Positions 410-25,451 of a stretch of 64,000 nucleotides of DNA are shown here, one piece after another; position 1 is the first letter of the stretch, and each line of letters opens with the position of its first letter. Both the position numbers and the translations under genes were made by a program. The stretch comes from Burkholderiales bacterium. GTDB lineage: Bacteria > Patescibacteriota > Minisyncoccia > Phycocordibacterales > UBA9973. The DNA lies in the NCBI GenBank assembly GCA_023701005.1, contig JAMPXW010000001.1, forward strand, positions 143,843 to 207,842. The letters are read 5' to 3'. The notes under the pieces are model-generated. The model was given only the letters and a program-made list of their open reading frames with translations. It made no database searches and was not told where the DNA came from.

Positions 410-1789
410 ATGAATTTAAAAGATTTAAAAAAAATAAAGATTCCAGATAAACCAGGAGTATATTTTTTCTTGAAAAACAAGCCTGCCTCGACTCGGCAAG
501 ACGGGGGAATATTATATATTGGTAAGGCAACCTCTTTGAAAGATAGAGTTAGAAGTTATTTTGGGAAAGACCCCGAAGAAAAGCAAGCTTTCTACGGGGC
601 AGGTTTAATAGAGAGTAGAGGGCCTTTAATAGTTAAAATGATTAAAGATGCTGATGAAGTTAAATGGCAAGAGACGGATAGTGTTTTGGAAGCTCTTATT
701 TTAGAAGCTTCTCTTATAAAAAAATATCAACCCAAATATAATACAAAAGAAAAATCTGACAGAAGCTTTAATTATGTTTGTATTACAAAAGAAAAAAAGA
801 TTGCAATAATTCGCGGAAGGAATATTAAAAAAATGGTTTTTGATAAAATATATGGGCCATTTCCTAATAATAGCCAGCTGCGAGAAGCTTTGAGAATTAT
901 AAGAAAAATATTCCCTTATTTTGAAGACAGAAAGAATACAAAAGGTAAAGATGAATTTTATAAACAAATAAAATTAGTGCCAGAAAATTTAATAGAAAAT
1001 AAAAATAATATTAAAAATATTAAATTACTTTTTGAAGGTAAAAAGAAAAAGATTTTTTTAAATTTAAAAAAAGAGATGAATTCTTTTGCAAAGAAGAGAG
1101 CCTTTGAAAAGGCTGGAGAAGTTAAAAGGCAAATTTTTGCACTTCAGCATATAAATGATGTGGCTTTAATAAAAAATAACATTAATGACTTCACAGGTAA
1201 AAAAATTTTTGACTCTGGATTTCTTATTGGAAACCCTGCAAGAGTTTCTTCTAATTTTTCGTCCCTGCGCCCTTCCCCTGAGTACAGAGGTGGGACCCTC
1301 GGGAAGCTCAAAATTAAAAGAAACTCTTGTAGGATAGAGGCTTATGATATTGCGCATATGGGTGGGAAAAACATAGTTGGTGTTATGGTGGTTTTAGTCG
1401 ATGGTGAAATAGAAAAAAGTGAATATAAAAAATTTAAAATAAAAAGCCAAAATAATACGCTTGCCCGCCGTGGTGGGAATGATATTGGAGCCTTGGAAGA
1501 AGTCTTAGAAAGACGTTTTAAACATAGAGAATGGCAATACCCCGATGTTGTTATAATGGATGGGGGAATAGCACAGATTAATTTAGCAAAAAGAATTCTA
1601 TCTAAAATAGATGAAAATATAAAGATAGTTTCTGTATTAAAAGACGAAAAACATAAAGCTAAAGCGATATTGGGGGACAAAACTATTGGTTTAAAATATA
1701 AGAAAGAAATTTTATTAGCCAATAGTGAAGCACATAGGTTTGCTATAAATTATCACAAAAAGTTACGTAATAAAAATTTTATAAAATAA
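410..1789 (+). CDS. uvrC: Excinuclease ABC subunit C (short form without HhH tail) carrying four palindromic in-frame insertions
   Basis: GIY-YIG motifs PGVYFF...LYIGKATSLKDRVRSYF, UVR coil FEKAGEVKRQI, RNase H-like RIEAYDIAH and MDGG; follows uvrA. Confidence 0.93.
   Translation: MNLKDLKKIKIPDKPGVYFFLKNKPASTRQDGGILYIGKATSLKDRVRSYFGKDPEEKQAFYGAGLIESRGPLIVKMIKDADEVKWQETDSVLEALILEASLIKKYQPKYNTKEKSDRSFNYVCITKEKKIAIIRGRNIKKMVFDKIYGPFPNNSQLREALRIIRKIFPYFEDRKNTKGKDEFYKQIKLVPENLIENKNNIKNIKLLFEGKKKKIFLNLKKEMNSFAKKRAFEKAGEVKRQIFALQHINDVALIKNNINDFTGKKIFDSGFLIGNPARVSSNFSSLRPSPEYRGGTLGKLKIKRNSCRIEAYDIAHMGGKNIVGVMVVLVDGEIEKSEYKKFKIKSQNNTLARRGGNDIGALEEVLERRFKHREWQYPDVVIMDGGIAQINLAKRILSKIDENIKIVSVLKDEKHKAKAILGDKTIGLKYKKEILLANSEAHRFAINYHKKLRNKNFIK
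481..507. repeat. Short GC-rich palindromic insertion in uvrC (encodes PASTRQDG)
   Basis: gcctgcc-tcgactc-ggcaag, GC-rich hairpin in an AT-rich gene, lying between the GIY and YIG motifs. Confidence 0.55.
570..605. repeat. Palindromic element family B, in-frame copy in uvrC (DPEEKQAFYGAG)
   Basis: accccgaagaaaagcaagctttctacggggcaggtt; 32/36 identical to the intergenic copy at 28898-28933. Confidence 0.85.
1235..1333. repeat. Palindromic element family A, 99-bp in-frame copy in uvrC
   Basis: 24-nt inverted arms 1235-1258/1310-1333 around core tgcgcccttc...agta...tgggaccctc, shared with the two rluA copies. Confidence 0.85.
1464..1477. repeat. Mini palindrome cccgcc-gt-ggtggg in uvrC (ARRGG)
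   Basis: Resembles cccgcc-aga-ggcgga at 49503-49517. Confidence 0.45.
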
Positions 1790-1799
1790 ATTAAATTAT

Positions 1800-2276
1800 A
1801 TGAAGAAACAAGAAAATATTTTAATAATAAATGATATAAGAAGTGTGACTAATGTGGGAGCGATGTTTCGTACGGCTGATGCTTGTGGTATTGAAAAGAT
1901 TTATTTAACAGGTTTTTCACCCACACCATTTGATAGATTCGGAAAGATTCGTAAAGATATGGCAAAGTCTGCATTAGGGGCAGAAAATTTTATAGCTTGG
2001 GAATATAAGAAAAATATTTTGCCACTTCTTAAAAAATTTAAAGAAGAAAAATATTTGATAATAGGGATAGAGCAAGATAAAAGATCTATAGATTATAAAA
2101 AAGTAAAAATAACAGAGAAGAATGTTTTTATTGTTGGGGCAGAAGTGACAGGTATACCAAAAAACATACTTCAAAAATGTGATGTAATAGCTGAAATACC
2201 AATGAGAGGAAAGAAAGAATCATTAAATGTTTCTGTTGCTTGTGGAATTGCTTTATTTAGAATTTTGAATATTTAA
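1800..2276 (+). CDS. TrmH/SpoU-family RNA 2'-O-methyltransferase
   Basis: NVGAMFRTADACG, VGAEVTG and IPMRGKKESLNVSVA SPOUT motifs. Confidence 0.9.
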   Translation: MKKQENILIINDIRSVTNVGAMFRTADACGIEKIYLTGFSPTPFDRFGKIRKDMAKSALGAENFIAWEYKKNILPLLKKFKEEKYLIIGIEQDKRSIDYKKVKITEKNVFIVGAEVTGIPKNILQKCDVIAEIPMRGKKESLNVSVACGIALFRILNI

Positions 2277-2277
2277 A

Positions 2278-3129
2278 TTACTTCATTAAAAGTAGCCCGA
2301 CTAGAGCTATAAGACTACCAAGAATTTTTATTGACAAGTCCTCACGTTCTTTTAAAAAGATAGCTCCTGCTATAAAAATGATGACTACTTTAAAAGTTGT
2401 TATGGCTGAAACTAAACTTAAATTTCCGACGACAAAAATTAAAATTACCCATGACAATGATTGAAGAAAGCGAAGTACTCCTGTAATGGTAATATCTTTT
2501 TTTGAATAAACGCTTTTATTGTGTGTAATTAAAGTAATTAAACCTAAAAAAATACATTGAGCCCACCAGCTAAACATTATTCCTGCTGTAAAACCTGTTA
2601 TTTTCATTAAAGCTCGTTCTGCAACAAGACAAACTCCAAGCATCACACCAGAAAGAATCATAAATATAAAATATCTATCAAATTTGAATTTTCCAATTTT
2701 GTGTTTCTTGGATACAATCAACATGCCGATAAGTAATAATACTGTTCCTAATATCTGAATCAAAGTGAGTTTTTCATTTAGAAATATTGTAGCAAGTACT
2801 ATAGTTATTGGTGTATAAATATTACTAATTAATGAACTTACTCCAGCTTCAACATGTTTTTGAGCGATATATGAGAAAATGAAATATCCAGCACCAAATA
2901 ATCCACAGACCAAAGAAAGTCCGATAAGATAATAAATATTACCTTGGATGTAAAAAGGTTCGAAAAGCGGTAATAATAAACTTAAAATGACAGTAATAAA
3001 TGTTACCTGAAATGCAAAATGTATTTGTCCTTCATTGTCTATATTCTTTTTTGTTGCCAACCATCTGCGCTGTAGTGGTGATGCGCTTGCCGCGACAAAA
3101 TAAAATATATAACTAAAAAATATTAGCAT
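2278..3129 (-). CDS. EamA/DMT-family transporter
   Basis: About 10 hydrophobic helices in two repeats ending FLNEKL and IFLKERE. Confidence 0.85.
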   Translation of the reverse strand: MLIFFSYIFYFVAASASPLQRRWLATKKNIDNEGQIHFAFQVTFITVILSLLLPLFEPFYIQGNIYYLIGLSLVCGLFGAGYFIFSYIAQKHVEAGVSSLISNIYTPITIVLATIFLNEKLTLIQILGTVLLLIGMLIVSKKHKIGKFKFDRYFIFMILSGVMLGVCLVAERALMKITGFTAGIMFSWWAQCIFLGLITLITHNKSVYSKKDITITGVLRFLQSLSWVILIFVVGNLSLVSAITTFKVVIIFIAGAIFLKEREDLSIKILGSLIALVGLLLMK

Positions 3130-3166
3130 ATTAGCATTTTACACCTTTTTAGAGTATTTTCATATT

Positions 3167-4012
3167 TCATTTTTGATGAATATTGCAAAAATGGGCGCTT
3201 CTGCCGTTTATAATTTTTCTTAAGATTATTCCTTTGCAGTTTTTCTTTTTACATTTTTCTCCGGTTCTTCTGTAGGCTTTGTGGTGAAGTTGAAATTCTC
3301 CTTTTTCTCCAAAAACATTTATATAGTCAGACATTGAATCTCCCCCGAAATCTATTCCTTTAGATAATATTTCTCTTAATGCTTTAAACATTGTTTTGAA
3401 CTCGGATGGTTTTATTTTTGATATTTTTCTTTCTGGGTGCATCCCAATACGCCAAAGTATTTCATCTGAATAAATATTACCGATTCCAGCTATGATGGAT
3501 TGATCCATTAATACTGTCTTTATTTTGCCTTTAGGTTTTTTCTCTAAAGCTTTTTTAAATTTATCTTCATTAAAATTTTTATCTAATGGCTCAGGGCCTA
3601 GGTGTTTTAGATGAGTAGAATCGTGTATTGTGTTAGTATTTATCAAAGTTATTTTCCCAAATTTTCGAGCATCAGAAAAGGCTAGAAAATTATTTTTTGA
3701 TAAATAGAAAAGTACATGTACAAATTTATCTTTGTTGTTGAAAAGTAAATGACCTGTCATTTTCATGTGTACTAAGATAGTTTTATTGTTGTTTAAATTT
3801 ATGAGAATATTTTTTGCTCTTCTTTCTACTGAAAGTATTTTTTTATTTAAAACTTCTTTTTTAAAATACAGAAAAAATCTTGGATTAGCGATATTTCCAA
3901 TTTGACGTTTATCTTTGGTGTTTAGGTCTGTCCAAATTTCTTTTATAGTTAACCCCAAAATAGTTTTTTGGAGTCCACGAACTGTTGTCTCGACTTCTGG
4001 TAATTCAGGCAT
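3167..4012 (-). CDS. mutM: Formamidopyrimidine-DNA glycosylase
   Basis: MPELPEVET N-terminus, HMKMTG, GIGNIYSDE H2TH motif, C-terminal zinc finger. Confidence 0.96.
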   Translation of the reverse strand: MPELPEVETTVRGLQKTILGLTIKEIWTDLNTKDKRQIGNIANPRFFLYFKKEVLNKKILSVERRAKNILINLNNNKTILVHMKMTGHLLFNNKDKFVHVLFYLSKNNFLAFSDARKFGKITLINTNTIHDSTHLKHLGPEPLDKNFNEDKFKKALEKKPKGKIKTVLMDQSIIAGIGNIYSDEILWRIGMHPERKISKIKPSEFKTMFKALREILSKGIDFGGDSMSDYINVFGEKGEFQLHHKAYRRTGEKCKKKNCKGIILRKIINGRSAHFCNIHQK

Positions 4013-4013
4013 T

Positions 4014-4592
4014 CTATTTATTAGCTAATATTTTCAAAGCCTCACGGATTTTAGTATTTGTGTTTGCTTCAGAAGAAACTTCTTTTAAAGCTTCACGAGC
4101 TTCATTTTGTGAATATCCTAGTGATTTTAATGCTTCTAAGGCATCTAATTCATCTCGAAGGGAAGTACTGCCTTTTTCTTCTGTATTTTTATTTTGCATT
4201 TTATCCCGCAGTTCTATTATAATTTTTTCTGCTGTCTTTTTCCCAATGCCAGATATTTTAGTTAAATAAGCTATATCTCCTGTACTTATAGCTCTTTTTA
4301 ATGTTTCTATAGGGGCGACACCTAGCACACCGAGGGCTCCTTTGGGTCCTATCCCAGATACGTTTATAAGCATTTCAAAAAATTCTAATTCTTCTCTATC
4401 TAAAAAACCGTAAAGATCTAAAATATCTTCTCTTACGTGTGTATGAATCCAAAATAATACAGCCTCTTTTGTATTTTTTAGTTTAGATAAAGTATCAGGG
4501 GAGATGCTTATCTTGTATCCTACTCCACCAGTCTCAACTATGATGAATTTATCATTTTTGAATGTTATTTGTCCCTTTACGCTTCCGATCAT
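4014..4592 (-). CDS. ruvA: Holliday junction branch migration protein RuvA (start moved to ATG 4592, MIGSVKG)
   Basis: GGVGY, HVRED, LYGF, VSGIGPK, GIGKKTAEKIIIEL, ALKSLGY motifs. Confidence 0.96.
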   Translation of the reverse strand: MIGSVKGQITFKNDKFIIVETGGVGYKISISPDTLSKLKNTKEAVLFWIHTHVREDILDLYGFLDREELEFFEMLINVSGIGPKGALGVLGVAPIETLKRAISTGDIAYLTKISGIGKKTAEKIIIELRDKMQNKNTEEKGSTSLRDELDALEALKSLGYSQNEAREALKEVSSEANTNTKIREALKILANK

Positions 4593-4620
4593 GAGAATAT
4601 TATAGCATTTATAATTTTTA

Positions 4621-5802
4621 TTATTGAAGAGGTGGACAAATTGTTTTCGAGGCTGTGTTCCCAGCGTATCCAGTTTCATTTATACACCAATATCCATCTG
4701 AAATGGGGGCTATTATAGAATAAGTATCTTTTGAGTCTTTACAATTTAGAGTTGTTAATTTTGTTATACTTTTTATCGCGTTAAGGTATTCATTTGATTT
4801 ACAAAACCCATAATAAGAATTTGATTTCTCATAATAAATCTCTGCGGATGCTCTTGTGCTAGAGAGAGGCTCTTTTATTGTTGCATCCTTTAGATAATCT
4901 TGGGTTTTGTTTGATTTAGCTAATAGAGTTTTAATCGCTGATGGTATGCTGTTTTTATTGATTATAAATGATTTAATTATTTTTTCTATTTGATCTATCC
5001 TATTTTTATCATTTGTTTTTGAAATGACATTAAATATAATACTTAATTTTGTATTATTATAAGTACCTAAGTCTATTACGTAAATAAAAGTGTAAATATT
5101 TGGAAGTTCTTTTTGCAGGTAGATATATTTATATGATGGATGTGTATTAATATCTTCAAAAGAATTTTTTGGAGAGTATTTTTCTATAGAATATTTGTTT
5201 AGCATGATGTCATTAACATCAGTAATGATAGAAATTATAGGATAATCGTCCCATTGACGGATGGTTAAAAGAGCTAAATCATATAAAGAGTTTGTTTGTT
5301 GTTTATCGATTTCTGCCCCTGCTGGATAACTGAAAGAATAAAGTCCATTTATATCGTTATAGACACTTAAAGATGGATCTGTCACTTTGATTTCTTGAGT
5401 ATTTGGAATTATATTATTTTGTTGCTCGGCAGGGGTGGTTGTTTGTATGTTGTTATCTTGGGTTGGTGTTTCCGACAACACTGTTGTATCCCTATTTACA
5501 AATAAATTTTTAATAATAGATGAATCTAATAAGTCGTCTTTTAAATAATAAACAGAAACGCCAGCTATTAATAAAAATAGTATTAATACAATCCAAAATA
5601 TTTTTTTACCAAAATGATTATCAATTTTTGTGATTGATGGTTGTGGTTGAAAAGTTTGTTGCTGAGTTTTAGTAACATCAAATCCTTCTTCTATGTCTTG
5701 GTGGGTCCATCCATTAGCTAATAAATCGCTAGTTATTTTTTCTTTAATTATGCCTACTTGTAATTGTTGTTTAATAAAATTTACTAATTGCTGATTAATC
5801 AT
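4621..5802 (-). CDS. Membrane-anchored hypothetical protein: short N-terminal helical domain, one TM, extracellular region, pilin-like Cys-containing C-terminus
   Basis: 393-aa ORF; TM IFWIVLILFLLIAGVSVYYL; C-terminal AEIYY..NSYYGFC...YWCINETG. Confidence 0.7.
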   Translation of the reverse strand: MINQQLVNFIKQQLQVGIIKEKITSDLLANGWTHQDIEEGFDVTKTQQQTFQPQPSITKIDNHFGKKIFWIVLILFLLIAGVSVYYLKDDLLDSSIIKNLFVNRDTTVLSETPTQDNNIQTTTPAEQQNNIIPNTQEIKVTDPSLSVYNDINGLYSFSYPAGAEIDKQQTNSLYDLALLTIRQWDDYPIISIITDVNDIMLNKYSIEKYSPKNSFEDINTHPSYKYIYLQKELPNIYTFIYVIDLGTYNNTKLSIIFNVISKTNDKNRIDQIEKIIKSFIINKNSIPSAIKTLLAKSNKTQDYLKDATIKEPLSSTRASAEIYYEKSNSYYGFCKSNEYLNAIKSITKLTTLNCKDSKDTYSIIAPISDGYWCINETGYAGNTASKTICPPLQ

Positions 5803-5900
5803 AATTAATAGTATATTACTTTAATTTTTGTAATACTAGTAAAAGAAAACTATTTAAGAAAAATATTGCATTTTTGTGACTTTTCTGTTATATTACATCA

Positions 5901-6152
5901 ATGCCAATAATTAAATCAGCTAAAAAAGCTATACGTAGTTCTCTTCGCAAGAAGGCTTTTAATGATCGTCAAAAGCATGCGATGAAGGATATAATAAAGA
6001 AGATTCAAAAGACTGCTAAAACAGACAAGAAAGCAGCAGAGAAACTTTTAAGTACTGCATATGCTGTGATTGATAAGACAGCAAAGAAGGGTGTTATAAA
6101 GAAAAATAATGCTTCTCGAAAGAAATCTCGTTTAACAAGATTAGTAAAATAA
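5901..6152 (+). CDS. rpsT: 30S ribosomal protein S20
   Basis: MPIIKSAKKA...IDKTAKKGVIKKNNASRKKSRL. Confidence 0.95.
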   Translation: MPIIKSAKKAIRSSLRKKAFNDRQKHAMKDIIKKIQKTAKTDKKAAEKLLSTAYAVIDKTAKKGVIKKNNASRKKSRLTRLVK

Positions 6153-6184
6153 AACAAAAAAGCCCCGCAAGGGGCTTTTTTGTT
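6153..6184. terminator. Bidirectional intrinsic terminator between rpsT and csp
   Basis: aacaaaaaagcccc-gcaa-ggggcttttttgtt. Confidence 0.9.
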
Positions 6185-6197
6185 GTGAAGTTAAATA

Positions 6198-6395
6198 CTA
6201 TGCACGTTGTACGTTTGTAGCATTTAATCCCTTTGGGGATTCTTCTGTTTCGAAAGAAACAGCATCGCCTTCATGTAGCTCGTCGAAGCTTACTCCTACG
6301 AGGGAATTACTATGAAAGAATAAATCTTTCTGTAAACCTTCTCCTACGATGAATCCGAAACCTTTATCAGTTAGTCTTTTTATTGTACCAGTCAT
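6198..6395 (-). CDS. Cold-shock protein (CSD)
   Basis: KGFGFI (RNP1) and LFFH (RNP2); upstream TTGACA-17-CATACT promoter at about 6472-6500. Confidence 0.95.
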   Translation of the reverse strand: MTGTIKRLTDKGFGFIVGEGLQKDLFFHSNSLVGVSFDELHEGDAVSFETEESPKGLNATNVQRA

Positions 6396-6513
6396 TGATT
6401 TTTTTGTTAGATTGTTAAATACAAATAGATAAACTCGAGATCGACTCTTTTCGCACCTACTTTGTTTATTAAGTATGGTATATTAAAGTCTTTTTGTCAA
6501 TCCAAGCAACAAT

Positions 6514-7185: not shown

Positions 7186-7186
7186 T

Positions 7187-10100
7187 TTAATGATGTTCTT
7201 TTTTTGAATTATCAGCGACAAATACTACTTCGCGATTATAGTTAGAATATGCTTTTCTTGCTGCGAGTACAAGCAATACTACAAGAAGTATTAATAAGAG
7301 CCATCCTATTAGGTTGTTAGGCAAGAAGCCATTTCCAAATAAGAATGCAAGTGCTCCTAATTGTATCGGCTCAGTTGTGTTTATCGGTTGTTCTACGACT
7401 ACTGGCTGACTCCAAACTTGTGCAGATACATTTGCACTTACTGACTGGGTGTAGCCTGAAGGATCAGTATAAGACAAAATAGCAGGGAAGTTTAGATTTG
7501 TTCCTGCAGGAATGTTTTCTCTTACACGTACTCGTACTGTCACTGTGCCTTCTTTGTTTGCACCAAGTGTTCCCAGGTTGAAGATTAGAGTACTCCCAGA
7601 CCTAGTTGGATTGTTTGGATTTGAGAATATATAATCTACTTCATAAGGAAGATCCATTCGTAGGTTTAATTTTGTGATTGAACCTGTTCCAATGTTTTGG
7701 TAATTTACAGTATAGTTTATTTCGTCTCCTGGTTTTGGTCTTGTGTTGTCTATAGTAGGCACTATTGGTTGATTGCGATCGACAGAAGAAGTGATAAGGA
7801 CAAGGGAAGTAGGTGCTGGTTTTGGATTATTTATTGTTTGTCCACGAACTCCTATAGTGACTGTATCGCTTGCATAACCATAACTATTACTACAAGTTAT
7901 TTTATATGTTTTCCCTGATGTTAATGAACCAGTATAGAAACTAGCTGGTCCAATACTTTTTGTTCCTGACCAACCCGTTGATCCGCCACTAGCTACACAA
8001 GATGTGGCATTTTGAGATGTCCAACGTAGATAAGTAGCACCATTATAAGAGAGACTTTCTTCGTCAGCATTAAGACTAACGTAAGGATCATTTCCACTTG
8101 GTTGATTCTGATTTCCTACATAAACTGTAACTGATTTTGTGTCAGCATTACCGTTGTTATTTGAACAAGTAATATTGTATGTAGTTGTATTTGTGAGAGC
8201 CCCGGTATGAAAACTATTTGAATAAGTACTTTTTGTTCCTGCCCAACCATTAGAGCCAGAATTTGCATAACAAGATGTGGCATTTGTTGGATACCAACGG
8301 ATGTTTGTACTTCCGCCGTATGCGACACTGGTAGAATCAGCAGTTAATGTGACATTTGGTTGATAGATATTGTTATAGTTTTGATTGTTTATATTTATCA
8401 CCACGGATTCAGTTGTAGAACCAGCACTATTACCACAAGTCATCGTGTATACAGTAGTGTAATAGAGTGCTCCAGTAGAGAAGCTACCATTGTATGTGCT
8501 TCTTGACCCTGCCCAATTATTTCCACCATTGCTTGCTGTACAATATGTAGGATTGTTTGTTGGATTCCATGTTAAGTAAGCTCCACTTCCTGAAGTAATG
8601 TAAGTAGAATTAGCGGAAAGATTTATTATAGGAGCTTGTGTGTAATTATTACAATTATTGTAATAAGAACAATCATGATTATTGTTGGTTACATAAACTG
8701 TTACCGAGCTCACAGCTGGGGAAGTATTGTTTGCACCAGAACAGGTGATCGTGTAAGTTGTCGGAGTAGTTAACATCCCAGTATTCCAAGTTCCTGAAAG
8801 ATTTACACTTCCATACCAATAGTTAGAATTATTACTTGTTGCTACACAAGATGTCGCGTTGTTTGAGTTCCAACGTAAGGTTGTGCTGTTTCCATAATTT
8901 ACATTCGTATTATCAGCAGAGATACTAACGGTAGGATTTTGGCTATAACATTGTGGATTTGTATATGTTTGAGTTGAAGGCCCAGAACAATATGCGCCAC
9001 CGTTTGCAGGTGTAGGGTTTGTACAAGTTCTTGTTTGTGTTCCAGATGTACCACAAGCATAATCTCTAGTACTCCAATCACTCCATCCACCATTTATAGG
9101 TTGATTTATTACAGTGTTCGCACATTTTGTCCCGTCCCATTGAGTGTTTGATGCACAACTAGAAGTTATTATTTTTGTATCTAGCAATTCACCATTATTA
9201 TAAAGATAAAAATTTCTTGAACTAAAAGGTATAAATACAGACTGACTTCCGTAATTTCTATTTGCAATAGTTGAACCGTCGTACGGATAAGAAGAAGTTA
9301 CAGAAGAGATACCTTTTGGATTTGTTGTGTTCCAAGTTATTGTTGTATTACAGCCATTTCCATTTAAGGGGATTGTACAGTAAGAAGAACCAGTCAAAGT
9401 TCCTGACATTTGAGAAGGGATGGCTGTCACATAGACTATTGCAGAAGCTGAAGTTGATTTTCCTCCACCATAACAAGTTATATTGTAAGTTGTATTAGAA
9501 GTTGGATTTACTGTTTGATTTCCATTTGTTGTTCCTCCGCCATACATCCAACTTGCTGAACATGAATCAGCGTTTGAGCTATTCCAAGCAAGATTTACAG
9601 ATTGCCCAGCAGTAATCGTTGTGTTGCTTTTTCCGTCTACTGTTAGAGATACGGTAGGATTATTTACGACACAAGCAGGGTTTGTGTATGATTGTGTAGA
9701 AGGTCCAGAACAATATGCGCCACCGTTTGCAGGTGTAGGGTTTGTACAAGTTCTTGTTTGTGTTCCAGATGTACCACAAGCATAATCTCTAGTACTCCAA
9801 TCACTCCATCCACCATTTACGGGAACTAAACAAGCACTATTTGTGTATGTTTGAGTTTCTGTACTTGGCCCAGAACAATATGCACCACCATATGCAGGCG
9901 TAGGATTATTACAAGAACGAGTTCTTGTTTGAACACCAGAGTATCCACATTGAGTACTTTTTGGGCTCCAGTCGCTCCAAGCACTCCAACCGCCGTTTAC
10001 TGGTTGATTTACTACAGTACATGTGGAAGTTGTGAAATTAAGAATATTTAAATATGCTGTTCCGTAATTATTGGTAACTTCGAGTCTAAAATAATAAGTA

Positions 10101-10381
10101 GTATTTTCAGAAAGACCTGAAATGTATTGTTGAATAGGAAATGTACCTTCAGTATTAAAATACTGTACTGGGGTTATTGTCCCGGCACCATTTGCTACTG
10201 TACTATAGCTAGTACTATAAGTAAAACGTGCATGAGTTGGAGGGGTTCCTGTGGTTACTGTCCCTGTCAAAGTAGCACTATTACAACTTGTTACAGTTTG
10301 AGCAGAAACGACATTTCCATTAGCAAAAATCCCTAAAAGGGTTACTGTTCCGACTATTAATAATTTTATTTTTGTACTCAT
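7187..10381 (-). CDS. Large surface/adhesin-like protein: signal peptide, FN3-like domain, three thrombospondin type-1 repeats, Ig-like repeats, DUF11-like domain, C-terminal TM anchor
   Basis: 3x NGGWSxWS..CG.SG.QTR.C.NPTPA.GGAYCSGP; repeated PxVSLxA...LxW.S.NA.SC.A...W...TTY.ITC units; PGDEINYTVNYQNIG; hydrophobic tail. Confidence 0.85.
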   Translation of the reverse strand: MSTKIKLLIVGTVTLLGIFANGNVVSAQTVTSCNSATLTGTVTTGTPPTHARFTYSTSYSTVANGAGTITPVQYFNTEGTFPIQQYISGLSENTTYYFRLEVTNNYGTAYLNILNFTTSTCTVVNQPVNGGWSAWSDWSPKSTQCGYSGVQTRTRSCNNPTPAYGGAYCSGPSTETQTYTNSACLVPVNGGWSDWSTRDYACGTSGTQTRTCTNPTPANGGAYCSGPSTQSYTNPACVVNNPTVSLTVDGKSNTTITAGQSVNLAWNSSNADSCSASWMYGGGTTNGNQTVNPTSNTTYNITCYGGGKSTSASAIVYVTAIPSQMSGTLTGSSYCTIPLNGNGCNTTITWNTTNPKGISSVTSSYPYDGSTIANRNYGSQSVFIPFSSRNFYLYNNGELLDTKIITSSCASNTQWDGTKCANTVINQPINGGWSDWSTRDYACGTSGTQTRTCTNPTPANGGAYCSGPSTQTYTNPQCYSQNPTVSISADNTNVNYGNSTTLRWNSNNATSCVATSNNSNYWYGSVNLSGTWNTGMLTTPTTYTITCSGANNTSPAVSSVTVYVTNNNHDCSYYNNCNNYTQAPIINLSANSTYITSGSGAYLTWNPTNNPTYCTASNGGNNWAGSRSTYNGSFSTGALYYTTVYTMTCGNSAGSTTESVVININNQNYNNIYQPNVTLTADSTSVAYGGSTNIRWYPTNATSCYANSGSNGWAGTKSTYSNSFHTGALTNTTTYNITCSNNNGNADTKSVTVYVGNQNQPSGNDPYVSLNADEESLSYNGATYLRWTSQNATSCVASGGSTGWSGTKSIGPASFYTGSLTSGKTYKITCSNSYGYASDTVTIGVRGQTINNPKPAPTSLVLITSSVDRNQPIVPTIDNTRPKPGDEINYTVNYQNIGTGSITKLNLRMDLPYEVDYIFSNPNNPTRSGSTLIFNLGTLGANKEGTVTVRVRVRENIPAGTNLNFPAILSYTDPSGYTQSVSANVSAQVWSQPVVVEQPINTTEPIQLGALAFLFGNGFLPNNLIGWLLLILLVVLLVLAARKAYSNYNREVVFVADNSKKEHH
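8982..9096. repeat. 115-bp perfect direct repeat, copy 1 (TSP1 module)
   Basis: Identical to 9705-9819 by base-by-base reading. Confidence 0.9.
9705..9819. repeat. 115-bp perfect direct repeat, copy 2 (TSP1 module)
   Basis: Identical to 8982-9096; offset 723 bp, in frame. Confidence 0.9.
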
Positions 10382-17110: not shown

Positions 17111-17114
17111 TGGA

Positions 17115-17968: not shown

Positions 17969-18040
17969 TGACCCCGGTAGGAATCGAACCTACATCATAA
18001 CTTCCGCAAAGTTACGTCCTATCCATTGAACGACGGGGCC
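17969..18040 (-). tRNA. tRNA-Arg(GCG)
   Basis: Cloverleaf GGCCCCG/CGGGGTC, anticodon arm taact-ttGCGga-agtta, T-loop GTTCGATTC. Confidence 0.93.
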
Positions 18041-18099
18041 TTTTGTTTGTCTAGATGTTAGACAATTGAAGGTTAACAGTTTTTAAGAAAAAATTCAAA

Positions 18100-18567: not shown

Positions 18568-18628
18568 TAGTATAATTATACTAACCTTTAATATTTAATG
18601 CAAAAATATTGGAATTTTGTATTATTAA

Positions 18629-18953: not shown

Positions 18954-18972
18954 TGAAAAAAAACGGCAACAG

Positions 18973-18995
18973 AGAGCTCCTTTAAAAGGAGCTCT
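18973..18995. terminator. Strong hairpin between the candidate ncRNA and the convergent protease
   Basis: agagctcctt-taa-aaggagctct, 10-bp stem, weak U tracts. Confidence 0.65.
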
Positions 18996-19120
18996 TACTA
19001 TTTATATATTTTGAGTTTTAAATATTTGCGGGTCACTCGGGTTCAGCACCAGGATGGTGAGACACTGTAAGGGTCGTTTGGGATAATTTTAGAGACTAAG
19101 CAGAGGGATGTGCGTCTATG

Positions 19121-19927
19121 CTAATTTATTGGTACTAAATTAAAAACTTCTTTTATGGTATCGAGCTTAAATAAGATACCTAGCCCAATCCACTTAATAG
19201 GTATTTTCTGTTTTTCTTTTTCCTCTGCAACAGTCTCAACTTCTGTAAAATCTAAATAAGAAAATGTTGATTCTGCAATTATTCCAAGAAGTTTATACTT
19301 ACCATTATGGCTTACAAAAACAGGACTTCCGCTTGACCCTGGAAACACTTGAGCATCAATCAATAGCTGTCTTTTTCCATTAAAGTTTATGTCTGGAATA
19401 CTAGAAATATTACCATTTCTAAAAATTGGTAGAAAATTTTTGCGATCGTAGAATCCTGTAGGATAACCTACGAAAACTATATTCTGACCACAATACAAAT
19501 CTTCATTTTTATAATCTGAGAATTCATCTAACTTTAAACTTCTCATATTTAGTGGAATTTCTGGAAAATTATAAGCCGCTGATATATCAAGACATCCAAC
19601 ATCAACTTCTTTGTCTGGATGGTCAAAATACAATTTACCATCCCTTTCTATCTCTATTTGAAACTTGTGAGTTTCTCCTAGTTTAAATGTTCCATCTTTT
19701 TCTGCCTTATGTACAGTTATTAATATTTTCTTTTTTATTCCCTCTAAATTTTTATCTTTCTTTCCAAAAAAAACATGCTTGTTTGAAAAAAGTAGCTGTT
19801 TAATTCTATTATTACCTATGTCCTTTGTTATTAAAAACCCTGTACCAAATTCTTTATCATCAATATTTTCTATCAATACTGTGTTAAAAAATACTTGCTC
19901 TTCAAATTTGTTAAATTGGACTGACAT
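19121..19927 (-). CDS. Trypsin-like (PA clan) serine protease, apparently cytoplasmic
   Basis: GTGF, SNKHV (His), DVG (Asp), VGYP, FPGSSGSPV (Ser); no signal peptide. Confidence 0.88.
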   Translation of the reverse strand: MSVQFNKFEEQVFFNTVLIENIDDKEFGTGFLITKDIGNNRIKQLLFSNKHVFFGKKDKNLEGIKKKILITVHKAEKDGTFKLGETHKFQIEIERDGKLYFDHPDKEVDVGCLDISAAYNFPEIPLNMRSLKLDEFSDYKNEDLYCGQNIVFVGYPTGFYDRKNFLPIFRNGNISSIPDINFNGKRQLLIDAQVFPGSSGSPVFVSHNGKYKLLGIIAESTFSYLDFTEVETVAEEKEKQKIPIKWIGLGILFKLDTIKEVFNLVPIN

Positions 19928-19995
19928 ACAACAAATTATAGCTTAAATATAATAAATTAAGTAGTGAGTCTACTCCGGTACTTTATTTTTAAGGG

Positions 19996-20080
19996 CGGAG
20001 GTGGTGAGATTCGAACTCACGGTCCCTTTCAGGACTTCGGTTTTCAAGACCGATGCACTAAGCCTCTATGCGACACCTCC
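19996..20080 (-). tRNA. tRNA-Ser(TGA)
   Basis: GGAGGTG/CACCTCC acceptor stem, tcggt-ctTGAaa-accga, long variable arm. Confidence 0.95.
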
Positions 20081-20113
20081 CAGTAGTTGGTTCAATTCAA
20101 TATACCTTTTATC

Positions 20114-20599
20114 TTAAAAATTTTCAATCTTTTTTGTTAACCAACTTTTTTCTAAAAGATGTTCTTCCGCATGACAATTTGGACAAATTAACTCTAGATT
20201 TTCAATTTCATTATTTTTTCGATTTCGATTTTTGTGATGTACTTCTAAAATTTGGTATTTGTCATAATTACATTTTTCACATTTTTTGCCTTTTTCTTTT
20301 AATAGTTTTATTTTTAAAGCTCTTTGAGATTTTACTTTATCATTGGGGCTGTTTATTTTATATTGTATACCTTTTCTATGGATGTTGGCACAACTTCTAC
20401 TACAAGTTTTTTTGTTTAATCCAGCTAATATTAATTTTTTGCACACAACACAAGGAGTTTCTTTTCTGTTAGATAAACCATAACAATTCATACTACAAAA
20501 AACTCTTCCACTATTTTTTTGAATTTCAATAGGTCTTCTATAAATAGGGTAGGAGCAAATGATGCAATTTGTATTTGGATTTCTTTTATACTCATCCAC
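20114..20599 (-). CDS. Zinc-finger HNH endonuclease (free-standing)
   Basis: CxxC and FCSxxC repeats, then CEKC...EVHHKNRNRKNN...NLELICPNCHAEEH. Confidence 0.88.
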   Translation of the reverse strand: MDEYKRNPNTNCIICSYPIYRRPIEIQKNSGRVFCSMNCYGLSNRKETPCVVCKKLILAGLNKKTCSRSCANIHRKGIQYKINSPNDKVKSQRALKIKLLKEKGKKCEKCNYDKYQILEVHHKNRNRKNNEIENLELICPNCHAEEHLLEKSWLTKKIENF

Positions 20600-20682
20600 T
20601 AATCCAGTATACCATAAATAAAATATATATCACAAAATTAAAATGCTCAGTTTTAGTGAGCATTTTAATTTTGAAAGTTAAG

Positions 20683-20943
20683 TTATTCTATATTTTCTGT
20701 TTTCTTTGTAGAGATGGGGCCCGTCAATACTTCTTTTACGTCACTCCATTTCTTTTTTGCTATATAGAAAACATAAAATATTTCTAATATACCGAAAGTA
20801 TTTAATATTAAAATTATTATGAACCATTTCTTTTGGTCATTTTTTACAGCCAGCCATAAAGAATAACCTTTCCAAAATAAAGTCCATATGATAATAATTG
20901 GGAAAGTCCAACTATTTATTGATGCTAATCCAAATTGTTCCAT
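20683..20943 (-). CDS. Small membrane protein (DUF5652-like; start at ATG 20943)
   Basis: WTLFWKGYSLWLA...WFIIILILNTFGILEIFY. Confidence 0.8.
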   Translation of the reverse strand: MEQFGLASINSWTFPIIIIWTLFWKGYSLWLAVKNDQKKWFIIILILNTFGILEIFYVFYIAKKKWSDVKEVLTGPISTKKTENIE

Positions 20944-20987
20944 ATATAAATTATACCAGAAGTAAAATTTTGTGCTAGTATCATAAT

Positions 20988-21431
20988 ATGAGATTTTTAG
21001 GGATAGATTATGGAACAAAAAGGATAGGTATTGCTATTTCTGACGAAAATGGAAGTTTGGCTTTTCCGAAAGAAATTATTTTCAATGATGAAAATACCTT
21101 AAGAAAGATTAAAGATATAATAAAAAAAGAGAACATAGAAGAACTTGTGATAGGAGAGTCTGTAGATTTTTCAGGAAAGTTAAACATCCTTTCGGCTAGG
21201 ATTGATATCTTTATTTCTGAACTTAAAGATAATTTTGATTTACCTATTAATAAACAAAAAGAGTTTTTAACTTCAATGGAGGCTCGCAAGGCAGGTGATA
21301 ATAAAAGGACATTGAGTCAATCTCAGGTACATAGTAAAGTTAAACAAAAAAAGAGTGGAAGAGTGGACGCTAGTGCTGCGGCATTAATTTTACAAAGATA
21401 TTTAGATAAGATTAATAATTTAAAAAAATAA
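20988..21431 (+). CDS. yqgF: YqgF/RuvX pre-16S rRNA nuclease
   Basis: LGIDYGTKRIGIAISD, EFLTS, VDASAAALILQRYLD. Confidence 0.93.
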   Translation: MRFLGIDYGTKRIGIAISDENGSLAFPKEIIFNDENTLRKIKDIIKKENIEELVIGESVDFSGKLNILSARIDIFISELKDNFDLPINKQKEFLTSMEARKAGDNKRTLSQSQVHSKVKQKKSGRVDASAAALILQRYLDKINNLKK

Positions 21432-21432
21432 A

Positions 21433-21801
21433 ATGATAAATTATGAAGATTTTAAAAAAATAGATATTGCTGTCGGTAAGATTTTATCAGCAGAAAAGAT
21501 ACCAGATACAGATAAGTTGCTTAAATTGAGTGTAGATATGGGGCCTCTGATTACAGAGGGGCCAGATGGTATGAAAGAAGAAAAGAGAGACATAAGACAG
21601 ATTGTTTCAGGCATTTCTTTATATTTTCCTGATTGTTCTTTGTTGGTGGGGAGGAAATGTATGTTTGTTGCTAATCTAGAGCCCAGAGTTATTCGTGGTT
21701 TTGAAAGTCAAGGTATGATATTGGCTGTCTCTACATCAGATAATAAGTTTTCTTTGCTTTCACCGAATGACGATATTCCCGAAGGCTCTCGTGCTAGATA
21801 A
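21433..21801 (+). CDS. Stand-alone tRNA-binding OB domain (MetRS C-terminal/Trbp111/CsaA-like)
   Basis: EDFKKIDIAVGKIL, DKLLKL, RQIVSGI, NLEPR, SQGMILA. Confidence 0.88.
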   Translation: MINYEDFKKIDIAVGKILSAEKIPDTDKLLKLSVDMGPLITEGPDGMKEEKRDIRQIVSGISLYFPDCSLLVGRKCMFVANLEPRVIRGFESQGMILAVSTSDNKFSLLSPNDDIPEGSRAR

Positions 21802-21841
21802 AATGATAGCAGTAATATGAAGTATATTGTATAATATTCTT

Positions 21842-22924
21842 ATGTTAAAGAATTTTTCTGATAGGTTTTTCCCAACACCAAAATTTCTTGCAGTACCTTC
21901 TTTCGGTTTAGATATATCTGATGAATCAATAAAATTTATAGAGCTTCTTAACAAGAGGAGTTCTGTTACTGTGCATCGATATGGAGAAAAAAAGATCCCT
22001 GCTGGTGTTATTGATTCAGGTAAAATAAAAGATAAGAAGAAAATGGAAGAGATATTGATAGCTCTTTCAAAAGAAGAGGGAATAAAATCTGTTAGAGTTT
22101 CTCTTCCAGAAGAGCAAGTTTATTTATTTAATCTTAGATTAGAAAAAGCAGGATTAGAAAATGTAAAAGAAAGCATAGAGCTTTCATTGGAAGAATACAT
22201 ACCGATTCCTGCCCCAGATGCTATTTTTGATTACGAAATCTTAAGTGAAGATGAAAAGAGTTTAAAATTACAAGTGGCGGCAATTCCTAAGAATGTCATC
22301 GAAGACTATCTTTCGGTTTTCAAAAATTCATCAATTTCAGTAAAGTCTTTTGAACTAGAAGCGCAAGCTATCTCTAGGGCAGTTGTAAAAAAGGGGGACT
22401 CGAGTACTTATATGATTGTAGATTTTGGTAAGAAACGCACGGGAATTTTTATTGTTTCAAATGGAATTGTCATTTTTACATCTACGTTGGATGTCGGAGG
22501 GACATTGCTAACTAATATGATAGAAAAGAATTTCAAAATAAGTTTTGAAGAAGCAGAAAAGAAAAAGATTGAATGTGGTCTAAAAAGAAATTCTAAAAAC
22601 ACGGAGATATTTTCTGTTCTTTTGAATGGAGTTTCTATTTTGCGTGATGAAATAGTAAAACATTTTTTATATTGGCATACTCACAAAGACGAAGAAGGCA
22701 GAGATAGGCCACCTATTGAGAAAGTTATTTTATGTGGAGGAGATTCAAATTTGGTAGGTCTTTCTGATTATTTATCTGTGAGTATGAAGACAAAAGCAGA
22801 GATGGGTAATGTTTGGATAAATATTACAAATACAGGTGAAGACATACCAGAGATAAGTTTTGATGAGTCTTTAACCTTTGCGACGGCTGTAGGTTTAGCA
22901 TTAGGAGATTTTGAATATGATTAA
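21842..22924 (+). CDS. pilM: Type IV pilus assembly protein PilM
   Basis: FGLDISDESIKF, IVDFGKKRT, ILCGG actin-like motifs; followed by PilN/PilO. Confidence 0.88.
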   Translation: MLKNFSDRFFPTPKFLAVPSFGLDISDESIKFIELLNKRSSVTVHRYGEKKIPAGVIDSGKIKDKKKMEEILIALSKEEGIKSVRVSLPEEQVYLFNLRLEKAGLENVKESIELSLEEYIPIPAPDAIFDYEILSEDEKSLKLQVAAIPKNVIEDYLSVFKNSSISVKSFELEAQAISRAVVKKGDSSTYMIVDFGKKRTGIFIVSNGIVIFTSTLDVGGTLLTNMIEKNFKISFEEAEKKKIECGLKRNSKNTEIFSVLLNGVSILRDEIVKHFLYWHTHKDEEGRDRPPIEKVILCGGDSNLVGLSDYLSVSMKTKAEMGNVWINITNTGEDIPEISFDESLTFATAVGLALGDFEYD

Positions 22925-23459
22925 TTTAATCCCAAACAAAGAAAAAAGAGAAATGTCTAAAGAGTTTTATTTTAGACTAATTGCACTTACATTTTTAATG
23001 TTAGGTATTTCTTTGCTAGTTTTTTCTATTCTTATTTTACCTTCTTATCTACTTGCTTCATCTAGTAGGGTTTCTTTTTTAAATAAATTAGAGGAACAAA
23101 AGAAAGAAATTATTCCTTTACCTGACCAAAATACAATTTTAGTTATTAAAAATTTAAAAAATAAAATAAATTTGATTGAAACTACTGAAAAAAATAAAAA
23201 AATTTTTTCACAAAGAATATTAAATGAGATAATTCTAAAAAAGATACCGAATATTAAAATTACAGAAATTATTTATAAAAATGATATGAAAGAAGGAGAG
23301 AAGATAAGTATTTCAGGAAGAGCTTCTAGTCGTGAGGTGTTGTTGTCTTTTAGGAGAACACTGGAGGATAATCCTGCTTTTTCAAAGGTAGATTTGCCGA
23401 TCTCTAATTTTATAAAGGGTTCTAATATAAGATTTTATTTAACCTTGATACCATCATAA
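22917..23459 (+). CDS. pilN: Type IV pilus assembly protein PilN-like
   Basis: MINLIP PilM-binding motif, TM, ferredoxin-like ISISGRA...FSKVDLP. Confidence 0.8.
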   Translation: MINLIPNKEKREMSKEFYFRLIALTFLMLGISLLVFSILILPSYLLASSSRVSFLNKLEEQKKEIIPLPDQNTILVIKNLKNKINLIETTEKNKKIFSQRILNEIILKKIPNIKITEIIYKNDMKEGEKISISGRASSREVLLSFRRTLEDNPAFSKVDLPISNFIKGSNIRFYLTLIPS

Positions 23460-23465
23460 AATTAT

Positions 23466-23990
23466 ATGCAATTTATAAATCAAAAAAAATACTTAATATT
23501 GTCCATCGTATTCTTTTTGTTTTTTTGTGCTACATCTGTATTTTTGTATCAAAAAACGAAGGACTATAACAAAGAAGCTCTTGCCTTGCAGGAAGAATGG
23601 CAGACAGAGAATATTCGTAGAGAAAATGTTAAATATCTTTCTAGTTCTGTAAAAACGATACAAAGGGAGATCACTTCACTAGAAAGTCATTTTGTTAAGA
23701 GTTCTGATGTTGTACCTTTTTTAGATACAATTGAGAAGTTGGCAAATGAGGTAAATTTAAAATCAGAGATTTCATCTGTTGATGTAAATAAGATGAGTCC
23801 CGCCCTCATGATTGAAATGAGGGTGCAGGGTAGTTTTGAAAATATTTATAAATTGATAAGACTTTTGGAACATTCACAATATGAACTAGAATTTGTTTCT
23901 ATTAATATACAAGAGATGGAGAATTCTACTGGGAAAGTTCCTCAATGGAATGCAGCTTTAATGATAAAGCTTTTAAGTTTTGAGATCTAA
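23466..23990 (+). CDS. pilO: Type IV pilus assembly protein PilO-like
   Basis: TM, coiled coil, VQGSFENIYKLIRLLE. Confidence 0.75.
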   Translation: MQFINQKKYLILSIVFFLFFCATSVFLYQKTKDYNKEALALQEEWQTENIRRENVKYLSSSVKTIQREITSLESHFVKSSDVVPFLDTIEKLANEVNLKSEISSVDVNKMSPALMIEMRVQGSFENIYKLIRLLEHSQYELEFVSINIQEMENSTGKVPQWNAALMIKLLSFEI

Positions 23991-23994
23991 TTTT

Positions 23995-24306
23995 ATGAAT
24001 ATAAATATAGAGTTTTTAAAAAAGAAAAAGAAATTTACAAAAGGAGACTCTAAATTGAGGCCAGATTTGTATTGGAGGTATATTCTCTTGGTGACTTTTG
24101 TCCTAATCACGCTCTCTTTTGTTTTTGGTTTTTTCCTCTTTTTAGATGTGACTAAAGATAGAGATTTTTCAACTATAAGCGTAAACGAAAGGGATACTTT
24201 AAAGAAAGAGAAAATAAATTCTGCGCTTCTTTATTTTAAAGAAAGAGAAAATAAATCAAATGAGATTCTGAATTCTCCTTCTATGGTTATTGACCCATCG
24301 TTATAA
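23995..24306 (+). CDS. Hypothetical single-TM protein ending the pilMNO operon
   Basis: ORF with one TM directly after pilO. Confidence 0.65.
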   Translation: MNINIEFLKKKKKFTKGDSKLRPDLYWRYILLVTFVLITLSFVFGFFLFLDVTKDRDFSTISVNERDTLKKEKINSALLYFKERENKSNEILNSPSMVIDPSL

Positions 24307-24407
24307 AAATGTTAATTTAGATAGGTATTTGTTTGCGTGATTAGCTAAGTTGTAGCGACTTCCGTGAAATGCACTTTTGTAAGAAAAGTAATATGTAAAT
24401 ATATTTT

Positions 24408-24480
24408 GCGCGGTTAGCTCAGTTGGTAGAGCAACCCGTTTACACCGGGAAGGTCGTAGGTTCGAGTCCTACACCGCGCA
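24408..24480 (+). tRNA. tRNA-Val(TAC)
   Basis: GCGCGGT/ACCGCGC acceptor stem, cccg-ttTACac-cggg, GTTCGAGTC. Confidence 0.95.
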
Positions 24481-24486
24481 CTAGCT

Positions 24487-24558
24487 GCCTTCGTAGTTCA
24501 ATGGATAGAACAGAGCTCTTCTAAGGCTTTGATGTAGGTTCGATTCCTACCGAAGGCA
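24487..24558 (+). tRNA. tRNA-Arg(TCT)
   Basis: GCCTTCG/CGAAGGC acceptor stem, gagct-ctTCTaa-ggctt. Confidence 0.95.
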
Positions 24559-24566
24559 CAAATAAA

Positions 24567-25451
24567 ATGACGTCAAAAATAAAGATTTTATATGAAGATA
24601 AAGATGTATTGGTTATAGATAAGCCATCAGGTATTTCTGTCCATCCAGATGGAAAGACAAAAGAAAAAACTATTTCTGATTGGTTTTTTAAAAAATATCC
24701 AAAATCAAAAAATGTTGGAGAGCCTATAAAAATATCAAAGACTTCGGAAGAAGTTCAAAATTTTTCCTCCTGCGCCCTTCCTCGAGTACGAGTTGGGGCC
24801 CTCGGAGATAAAAATTTTGAATTTCTTCCTCGTCCAGGTATTGTGCATAGATTAGATAAAGAAACTTCCGGGGTTTTAATTTTGGTAAAAAATCAGACAG
24901 CTTATGAATTTTTAAAAAACCAATTTAAAAATAGAGAAATAAAGAAAGTTTACAACACTGTCGTTTTGGGATCTGTAAAGAATGATCGTGGGGTGATTAG
25001 AAAACCAATTGGCAGAAGTGGTAATGATTTTCGTAAAAGATTAGCAGGGCGTGGGGCAAGAGGGGAGCTCAGAGAGGCTGTCACAGAATATACTGTCGTG
25101 AAGAGATTTCAGGATGAATGTGCACAAAATTTTTCCTCTTGCGCCCTTCTTCGGGCGCAAAAAGGGAAACAAAGTGGGACCCTCAGAGATAAAAATTTTG
25201 TGCACACTCATCCTTACACTTATTTAGAAGTACGTCCCAAGACAGGACGCACTCATCAGATCCGTGTTCATATGAAATTTATAAATCATTCTGTAGTTAA
25301 TGATTCACTTTATAATCCCAATCAGCCACACCCAAAAGGTTTTATTAGGTTAGCTCTACATGCAAAATCTATAGAATTTAAGGATCTAAAGGGTAATCTG
25401 CATAAGATAGAATCTGCTTTGCCAAAAGAGTTTCAAAAAGTGTTAAAATAA
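24567..25451 (+). CDS. RluA/RluD-family pseudouridine synthase with two palindromic in-frame insertions
   Basis: DKPSGISVHP, GIVHRLDKETSG, TGRTHQIRVH, LHA motifs. Confidence 0.93.
   Translation: MTSKIKILYEDKDVLVIDKPSGISVHPDGKTKEKTISDWFFKKYPKSKNVGEPIKISKTSEEVQNFSSCALPRVRVGALGDKNFEFLPRPGIVHRLDKETSGVLILVKNQTAYEFLKNQFKNREIKKVYNTVVLGSVKNDRGVIRKPIGRSGNDFRKRLAGRGARGELREAVTEYTVVKRFQDECAQNFSSCALLRAQKGKQSGTLRDKNFVHTHPYTYLEVRPKTGRTHQIRVHMKFINHSVVNDSLYNPNQPHPKGFIRLALHAKSIEFKDLKGNLHKIESALPKEFQKVLK
24746..24829. repeat. Palindromic element family A, 84-bp in-frame copy
   Basis: 20-nt arms ggaagaagttcaaaattttt / aaaaattttgaatttcttcc; core tgcgcccttc-ctcg-agta-cgag-ttggggccctc. Confidence 0.88.
25111..25214. 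repeat. Palindromic element family A, second in-frame copy in rluA
   Basis: 24-nt arms (23 pair) 25111-25134/25191-25214; core tgcgcccttc...gtgggaccctc. Confidence 0.88.

Follow-up and report, generated by a model that had tools for sequence, protein, structure and literature searches.

Hairpin repeats in core genes of a Parcubacteria genus and their probable spread as folded DNA strands

Element copies in uvrC and an RluA-family gene

The stretch of DNA analysed here (the window; 64,000 nucleotides of contig JAMPXW010000001.1, assembly GCA_023701005.1) lies in a 692-kb genome labelled G000 and holds three copies of a palindromic element, one in uvrC and two in the gene for an RluA-family pseudouridine synthase (Table 1). 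These belong to a repeat family of about 80-100 bases, found in one genus of Parcubacteria (Nomurabacteria type), which probably moves as a folded DNA strand with the help of a trans-acting enzyme and whose in-gene copies probably become disordered loops. In an unbiased long-inverted-repeat scan of the whole genome, copies 1 and 3 were recovered at the positions in Table 1 (99 and 104 bp) and copy 2 at 24746-24829 (84 bp), the true extent of copy 2 being that of Table 1, where it terminates in a small mismatched loop. The coordinates, arms, inner stems, AGTA hairpins, open frames and peptides given in a first-pass annotation of the window were thus confirmed, as were its host genes by Pfam and NCBIfam domain matches and its lengths of 99 and 84 bp; its third length, about 102 bp, is corrected to 104 bp. 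Copy lengths are 80-104 bp, and the hairpin stability is -44 to -51 kcal/mol as RNA with flanks.

Arms are termed intact when the terminal loop is present, as in copy 2, and perfected when they are homogenised and the loop is lost, as in copies 1 and 3; the left outer arm of copy 3 also mirrors its right one, a feature that kin copies lack. For copy 1 we infer that the conserved fold lies on the minus strand and that the peptide is read off the plus strand. The right-hand terminal word of copy 2 overlaps the native Pro-Arg codons before PGIVHRLD. Two further copies, in pcrA and ksgA, bring G000 to five, all in frame and all sense.

Comparison with orthologs agreed with the earlier proposal that these are insertions, since relatives lack the peptides at all three sites. 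At RluA site 1, 44 residues stand in G000 against the usual 18, and none of the 29 relatives compared carries the element besides G000; elsewhere the site holds it inverted in G077 (L198) and in the same orientation in metagenome contig L413 and run X2. RluA site 2 has 53 residues in G000 against 20-25 in the 15 of 28 relatives that are empty, with hairpin inserts of several kinds in 12 and one unclear case, in a sample whose query favours filled alleles at this site. The UvrC site, with 18-24 residues in empty alleles, reaches 61 in G000; besides a complete copy it contains the left-arm remnant of an older one. This remnant is almost the same as the left arm of the element in uvrC of L168, and resembles those of L032 and L033. 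In the AlphaFold2 model of RluA, the core has a pLDDT (predicted local distance difference test) score above 90 and both inserts form loops at 48-60, a value as low as that of the native loop 151-170.

Beside the element, uvrC holds three further small in-frame palindromic inserts of other families, at 478-505, 560-605 and 1458-1478; that at 560-605 is common to G007 and G010, and a second copy of it lies at 28888-28933. Downstream of the RluA gene are tandem paralogous cysteine-rich proteins of about 560 aa each, without Pfam match (25456-27132 and 27187-28896), and a 1064-aa gene at 7187-10381 (minus strand), with internal repeats of 85-142 nt, probably encodes a surface protein.

Table 1. 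Positions of host genes, element copies, recurring sites and further hairpin families (window coordinates; positions prefixed C1 to C4 refer to G000)
Feature	Position	Strand	Basis or remark
uvrC host gene, 459 aa	410..1789	+	Pfam GIY-YIG and UvrC RNase H domains; NCBIfam uvrC matches below curated cut-off
Left-arm remnant of older copy of same family, same uvrC site (serial occupation)	1187..1215	-	likeness to left arms of UvrC copies
Element copy 1, in frame in uvrC ahead of RIEAYD motif	1235..1333	-	arms homogenised, terminal loop lost
RluA-family pseudouridine synthase host gene, 294 aa	24567..25451	+	family matches; AlphaFold2
Element copy 2, RluA site 1, intact type	24740..24834	-	terminal purine loop on - strand; hairpin scan, ortholog comparison
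Element copy 3, RluA site 2, beta-hairpin loop, long-middle variant	25111..25214	-	hairpin scan, ortholog comparison
In-gene host sites: UvrC, RluA, PcrA, Tgt, Dus, LeuRS, RecG, IscS, MnmA, Fmt, LigA, KsgA, Pol I, few more			flanking motifs
Non-coding sites: operon gaps rpmE-prfA, rplJ-rplL, scpA-scpB, ftsZ-trxB, htpX-gatC			45 copies scanned
Further-family copies in G000	C1:17068, 66175, 86252, 136610, 208438; C2:26402, 116652, 149148, 205331, 248064		
Further-family copies in G000, continued	C3:25171, 65181; C4:26240, 49549, 52026, 63803		

Distribution, folded strand and ends of the unit

The core pattern of the element was found in 77 of 212 genomes of the genus, its reversed control in none, so the copies are not chance matches; as only exact matches were counted, these numbers are lower bounds. 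It was absent from all 397 genomes of a comparison sample drawn from other genera of the order, and among the genera searched the family is confined to this one genus of the candidate phyla radiation (CPR). The further genomic copies that the first-pass annotation had proposed to scan for are therefore present, in G000 and across the genus. The named records with armed copies, among those listed, are metagenome-assembled genomes of Nomurabacteria/Paceibacterota type. Matches of the pattern across GTDB were filtered by a requirement for T and A tracts; many of them were chance matches without arms in GC-rich genomes. Viral contigs were rejected as carriers, all seven pattern matches in them being chance and without arms.

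Copies were collected from GTDB loci, from 80 stretches taken from the first 150 listed genus matches, and from a metagenome scan, giving at least 210 distinct copies; because all copy statistics are computed over related copies, they overstate independence. After reassignment of five doubtful open reading frame calls, 127 of 210 copies lay in frame in genes (89 sense, 38 antisense) and 83 were non-coding or on short loci, so that the earlier statement that all copies are sense is true of G000 and fails elsewhere. The in-gene copies use all six frames, one of them only once, and occupy about 25 recurring sites in core genes, named mostly from flanking motifs recognised by eye and not by a family scan. 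Only 20-46% of non-coding copies are stop-free in any one given frame, and no copy splits one Pfam family among the 45 with flanks scanned.

The strand that carries the fold was assigned by arm mismatches, stability as DNA, triloops and terminal loops. Folded as their minus strands, short-core copies (60 of 84) give a 27-pair consensus, 18 pairs of which show compensatory change; across these 60 copies 94.8% of cells are paired, and covariation is 0.584 against 0.163 in shuffled alignments, which ignore kinship, and at most 0.15 in slid ones. Arm mismatches in 186 distinct arm pairs are of the kind that reads G·T on the minus strand (C·A or A·C on the plus strand) in 138 cases against 25 for the plus strand, or 84 against 22 when the conserved position is excluded, and votes counted per copy are 95 to 15 for the minus strand with 76 ties. 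An excess of the opposite sense would be expected from the C>T and A>G bias common on leading strands. Finally, the minus strand is the firmer one as DNA in 201 of 207 copies, its triloops are GNA (30) or ANA (8) in 38 of 38 cases, and among the first 120 arms the loop is purine-rich on the minus strand in 52 and the reverse in 2, with no loop in 31 and a mixed or unclassified one in 35. By these sequence criteria, it is the complement of the strand read in the first-pass annotation that carries the conserved fold. GNA loops with a sheared G-A pair are presented in PMC13037366 as a very stable DNA mini-hairpin motif, the DNA-over-RNA stability comparison there concerning the 8-mer.

Read from the outside on the folded strand, the element consists of an outer stem of 2-5 bp, a purine-rich loop, a variable stem of 7-9 bp, an A/T tract, a covarying stem of 3-5 bp, an invariant internal loop with a short CCC/GGG stem, and a variable tip that is a GNA triloop, a TANT loop or a longer hairpin. 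The purine-rich terminal loop of each intact arm is made up of two YGNAR words of 5 nt, and lies 11-13 nt off the T tract in 47 of 56 arms. In about 70% of in-gene copies the mRNA has the plus-strand sequence, so the conserved fold mostly lies on the non-mRNA strand, and the relevant structure is unlikely to be mRNA. A strand-specific hairpin with a conserved mismatch, as in the REP/REPIN-RAYT systems (REP, repetitive extragenic palindrome), is likewise indicated by the sequence polarity.

The ends of the unit are set by length statistics. In-gene copies that have a word at each end measure a multiple of three from word to word in 34 of 39 cases, non-coding ones in 11 of 27 (Fisher p=1e-4), after a looser first pass had given 22 of 39 and 6 of 20; the net insert therefore appears to run from word to word. 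The 5-nt word repeated at both ends fits equally a duplication, a crossover core or a target word of IS200/IS605 (IS608-type) elements. A pre-existing GNA mini-hairpin as target was rejected, as none was seen in eight empty rpmE-prfA gaps; YGNAR words by themselves are too common to be informative as targets.

Arm copying, candidate enzymes and turnover

The outer arms differ in sequence among the three window copies, as first described; in other genomes, arms are common to unrelated genes. One arm type recurs in UvrC (two sites), LeuRS (two sites), Tgt, MnmA, Fmt, PcrA and KsgA, and this recurrence in at least seven genes means that the inner arms are carried with the element. Inner-stem arms pair to about 90% within a copy and 30-45% across copies, background being reached about 20 nt out. 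Close pairs of copies at the same site show 139 compensatory double changes against 116 single changes; in a strain about 93% identical to G000, a T·A pair of copy 2 is replaced by C·G, and the counterpart of copy 2 in run X2 shows a compensatory arm change, the same copy being present in L413.

Part of this covariation appears to arise without selection. Arms were perfected in 31 of 120 cases, the right-hand purine word being kept in 21, the other word in none, and 10 being unclear under a loose word test. Inner mismatches are absent from 15 of 31 perfected arms against 8 of 56 others (p=0.0009). Intact and perfected forms occur at the single htpX-gatC locus (L098, L101, L246), and cores stand in either orientation between like arms at both RluA sites (L198; L003 against L115). 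Quasi-palindrome template switching is described in PMC7202029, PMC8604942 and PMC8794818 as a source of inverted-repeat arm homogenisation and spacer inversion. When one arm is copied onto the other in place, arm covariation is not pure evidence of selection; the pairing and covariation that had been taken as a sign of selected structure are thus real, and part of them arises from in-place copying.

An alternative that seems unlikely, if the least so of those considered, is that only the GC core moves and that one arm is made at insertion by inverted copying of the flanking target. Outer positions 3-6 past the terminal loop pair at 0.64, 0.53, 0.56 and 0.44 within copies against 0.41, 0.34, 0.34 and 0.32 across copies, the word of copy 2 overlaps native codons, G006 has a right-arm-like stretch without the core, the left flank of L280 (of empty length) matches the left arm of filled L288, and loops at some sites are short after word-to-word removal. 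Against these stand one inner arm, C·A mismatch included, that is found in at least seven unrelated genes, the fixed arm length and loop position, and the conserved mismatch of intact arms, which fresh copying would not be expected to leave. L280 and L288, moreover, are not sisters on the RluA tree (poorly resolved, with 27 of 59 inner branches open), and the G006 stretch matches the right arm that the element itself has in run X2; both may therefore be what deletions left behind. By sequence, no more than the outer 2-5 bp seem to come from the locus, which restricts the arm-making reading without refuting it.

As the mobilising enzyme, a transposase of the HUH/Y1 class (RAYT or IS200 type) would be our best guess by analogy, because HUH enzymes read strand-specific mismatched single-stranded DNA (ssDNA) hairpins and lose binding once the mismatch is corrected; binding of TnpA-REP was abolished when the bulge of the REP hairpin was corrected, according to PMC3479197. 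RAYT-like Y1 genes were found in 155 of 212 genus genomes, two of them in G000, and the invariant minus-strand stretch of the element agrees with one RAYT-flanking palindrome at 11 of 12 bases in L553 and at 10 bases in G000, a post hoc lead only. The two G000 genes (C1:5003-5692 and C1:67505-68173) are each flanked by their own palindrome of 20-37 nt, which across the clade (L541-L570) varies around an AGG-N5-CCT core.

Several observations weigh against movement as a folded strand with such an enzyme. The core was found at 0 of 29 loci beside RAYT-like genes and at 0 of 30 loci of the clade of the second RAYT of G000, these 59 loci being a minority of about 600 genus matches, so that the linked RAYT/IS200 transposase suggested at first was not found at the loci examined; it was also found at 0 of 30 small GIY-YIG loci, and a cargo gene at 0 of 20 half-pattern loci. 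Copy orientation goes with the gene and less with replication: of 15 antisense copies, 14 lie in flanks of opposite GC skew, and a replication-strand rule is not supported. The two terminal words are about equally variable, contrary to what an IS608-like model predicts, in which one word belongs to the target and the other to the element. Word-to-word removal leaves the UvrC loop 4-8 residues shorter than in empty orthologs, and the IscS loop presumably as short, judged against the loop lengths that we take to be usual. Finally, no filled/empty pair was found among near-identical strains, so the unit boundary has been placed statistically, from copies that are related to each other.

Slightly less probable than the arm-making alternative is that the same DNA element is spread, instead of by an HUH transposase, by a structure-specific nuclease of the small GIY-YIG type (UPF0213/SLX1-like) together with host repair. 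Stand-alone GIY-YIG genes are common in the genus, and at 9 of the 27 GIY-YIG loci listed an upstream hairpin has the same YGAG/CGAAG words, some with GAAGGGC as on the minus strand of the element, never with its core. The absence of the full core noted above and of any stand-alone GIY-YIG gene in G000 speaks against this spread, and a nuclease alone gives no precise rejoining. Small GIY-YIG genes at L511-L516, L531, L535, L537 and L538 are preceded by such hairpins, several lying directly 3' of a tRNA gene; in another clade (L517, L519-L523, L526, L527, L536) the gene is enclosed by an inverted repeat of CCCCACACCTTT and its complement, like a minimal mobile unit.

Sites are refilled as well as filled. 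In the supported five-genome clade of G000, RluA site 2 holds the element in two genomes, another element in one and nothing in two. Among 28 rpmE-prfA gaps chosen by L31 score, 20 have an insert of at least 50 nt, from many families, and 8 measure at most 9 nt. It is improbable, even beside the preceding alternatives, that the inserts are host-maintained signals for transcript stability, termination or DNA-protein binding and not selfish DNA: the filled rpmE-prfA gaps and the one orientation to the transcript of about 70% of in-gene copies would suit such a role, and are outweighed by the variation of occupant family, orientation and presence between close relatives, by a conserved fold that lies mostly off the mRNA strand, and by the 135 of 212 genomes without a match to the pattern.

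Besides this family, G000 hosts at least six more of hairpin type, in several of which the core again lies between a T tract and an A tract; they are located in murI, polA, uvrB, mnmA, lepA, tsaD, gatB, atpG, rsmI and intergenic sites. A sister family has four intergenic copies in G000 (C1:92384, C2:59223, C2:185945, C4:54179), with a core that resembles the minus strand of the element; in the nine G000 copies of the two families together, the purine-loop strand is on the lagging side by GC skew in 9 of 9. At least five further families share the plan of a conserved core enclosed by a T tract and an A tract, with arms that vary yet pair; some lie in frame in murI, polA, mnmA and tsaD. The rpmE-prfA gap (L321-L350; near C4:62100 in G000) sometimes holds two hairpin families in tandem (L109, L347).

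A very improbable reading is an RNA-level element, spliced out or skipped by the ribosome: its long closing stems would bring the flanks together and all five G000 copies share one orientation, whereas the family occurs in both orientations and all frames, keeps frame by length only inside genes, has no in-frame stops, includes the 83 non-coding copies, folds mostly on the non-mRNA strand, and is skipped at RluA site 1 by a sole RNA contig that has 27 other letters there, being an ordinary ortholog of another species. On the same facts, the excision or bypass offered by the first-pass annotation is not supported; neither the fixed mRNA orientation, the freedom from frame constraint nor the Rfam-type catalytic fold of self-splicing or bypassed sequences was seen, Rfam giving tRNAs only in the window and no match for the element. 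An antisense RNA intermediate is not favoured either, as no match to reverse transcriptase PF00078 was found in G000.

Proposed life cycle and relation to known systems

The evidence points to a genus-specific, non-autonomous, DNA-level element resembling Rickettsia palindromic elements (RPEs) and REPs. Of the mobile, structured RNA or ssDNA element generating peptide loops that was envisaged at first, mobility, structure and the added loops are retained, with ssDNA as the better substrate, and the RNA-level role is dropped. Movement as a folded strand would begin when a hairpin-reading enzyme cuts and joins at the terminal word, giving a net insert from word to word. Only stop-free, frame-keeping inserts in tolerant loops would survive. 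Template switching during replication could then copy one arm onto the other, erase the terminal loop and at times invert the core, and loss of the loop probably immobilises the copy. Copies would finally be lost, or give way at these hot spots to another copy of the family or to a different hairpin family. In-gene copies are likely translated and not spliced out; the frame bias and the AlphaFold2 loops on an intact RluA fold agree with this, as sequence and model.

Comparison with RPEs, which had been named as an analogue, held up: both are dispersed hairpins of about 100 bp, in frame in unrelated conserved genes and absent from orthologs. RPEs (Ogata 2000, 2002, as summarised in PMC10969869) are palindromic and in frame in unrelated housekeeping genes, and that summary also gives several families per genome, intergenic sites as well, and no known transposase, features shared with the element. 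The likeness considered here is one of architecture; the hypervariable covarying outer stems, the strand-specific fold, the GNA loops, the purine-rich terminal loops, the reoccupation of the same sites by different families and the CPR host genus are the element's own.

The GTAG/CGTC intragenic REPs (Di Nocera 2013, PMC3733652) also give in-frame inserts of 20-30 aa with a similar host bias (uvr genes, UvrD, Pol I, DNA ligase, tRNA synthetases, pseudouridine synthases). In contrast to them, the element is three to four times as long, mostly intragenic, present in 1-7 copies per genome and without the terminal GTAG/CGTC tag on a 20-40-bp hairpin; its ends are YGNAR loops, with CGTAG as a minor variant and CGTC internal in one subfamily. 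With REP/REPIN-RAYT and IS200/IS605 HUH systems it shares a strand-specific imperfect ssDNA hairpin in which the mismatch seems to matter (PMC3479197, PMC3116915 and PMC3337134), whereas a REPIN is two conserved REPs around a variable spacer and in the element it is the centre that is conserved and the arms that vary; the element was also absent next to the RAYT genes of all 59 loci. Conserved terminal inverted repeats common to an insertion sequence, as in miniature inverted-repeat transposable elements, were not seen, given the low pairing of arms across copies. Quasi-palindrome template switching shares arm homogenisation and spacer inversion (same three sources); being a mutational process and no element, it accounts for copy ageing, not spread. 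No description of such elements was found in the literature on CPR repeats, a search outside which most subscription journals fell.

A bolder and rather doubtful extension is that YGNAR loops are recombination sites of an undescribed ssDNA cut-and-join system common to many hairpin families of these bacteria, each visit leaving a word that invites the next. If so, core-enzyme loops and operon gaps would be cassette-like slots whose content is swapped, inverted or erased on the timescale of species, and the system would be a standing generator of hypervariable loops in essential proteins, with an insertion unit of about 90 bases and a 5-base target.

The route by which RPE-type palindromes enter genes has been an open question since their description. 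Strand polarity, unit ends and the ageing process are what the present analysis adds, and the family offers testable handles in its folding strand, the unit end, the mismatch that marks a live copy and the ageing of copies. Perfect stem covariation in such repeats should be read with caution, since it can stem from template switching and not selection. In streamlined CPR genomes, fast-changing loops of 25-35 residues occur in DNA-repair and tRNA enzymes, with effects on alignments and annotation.

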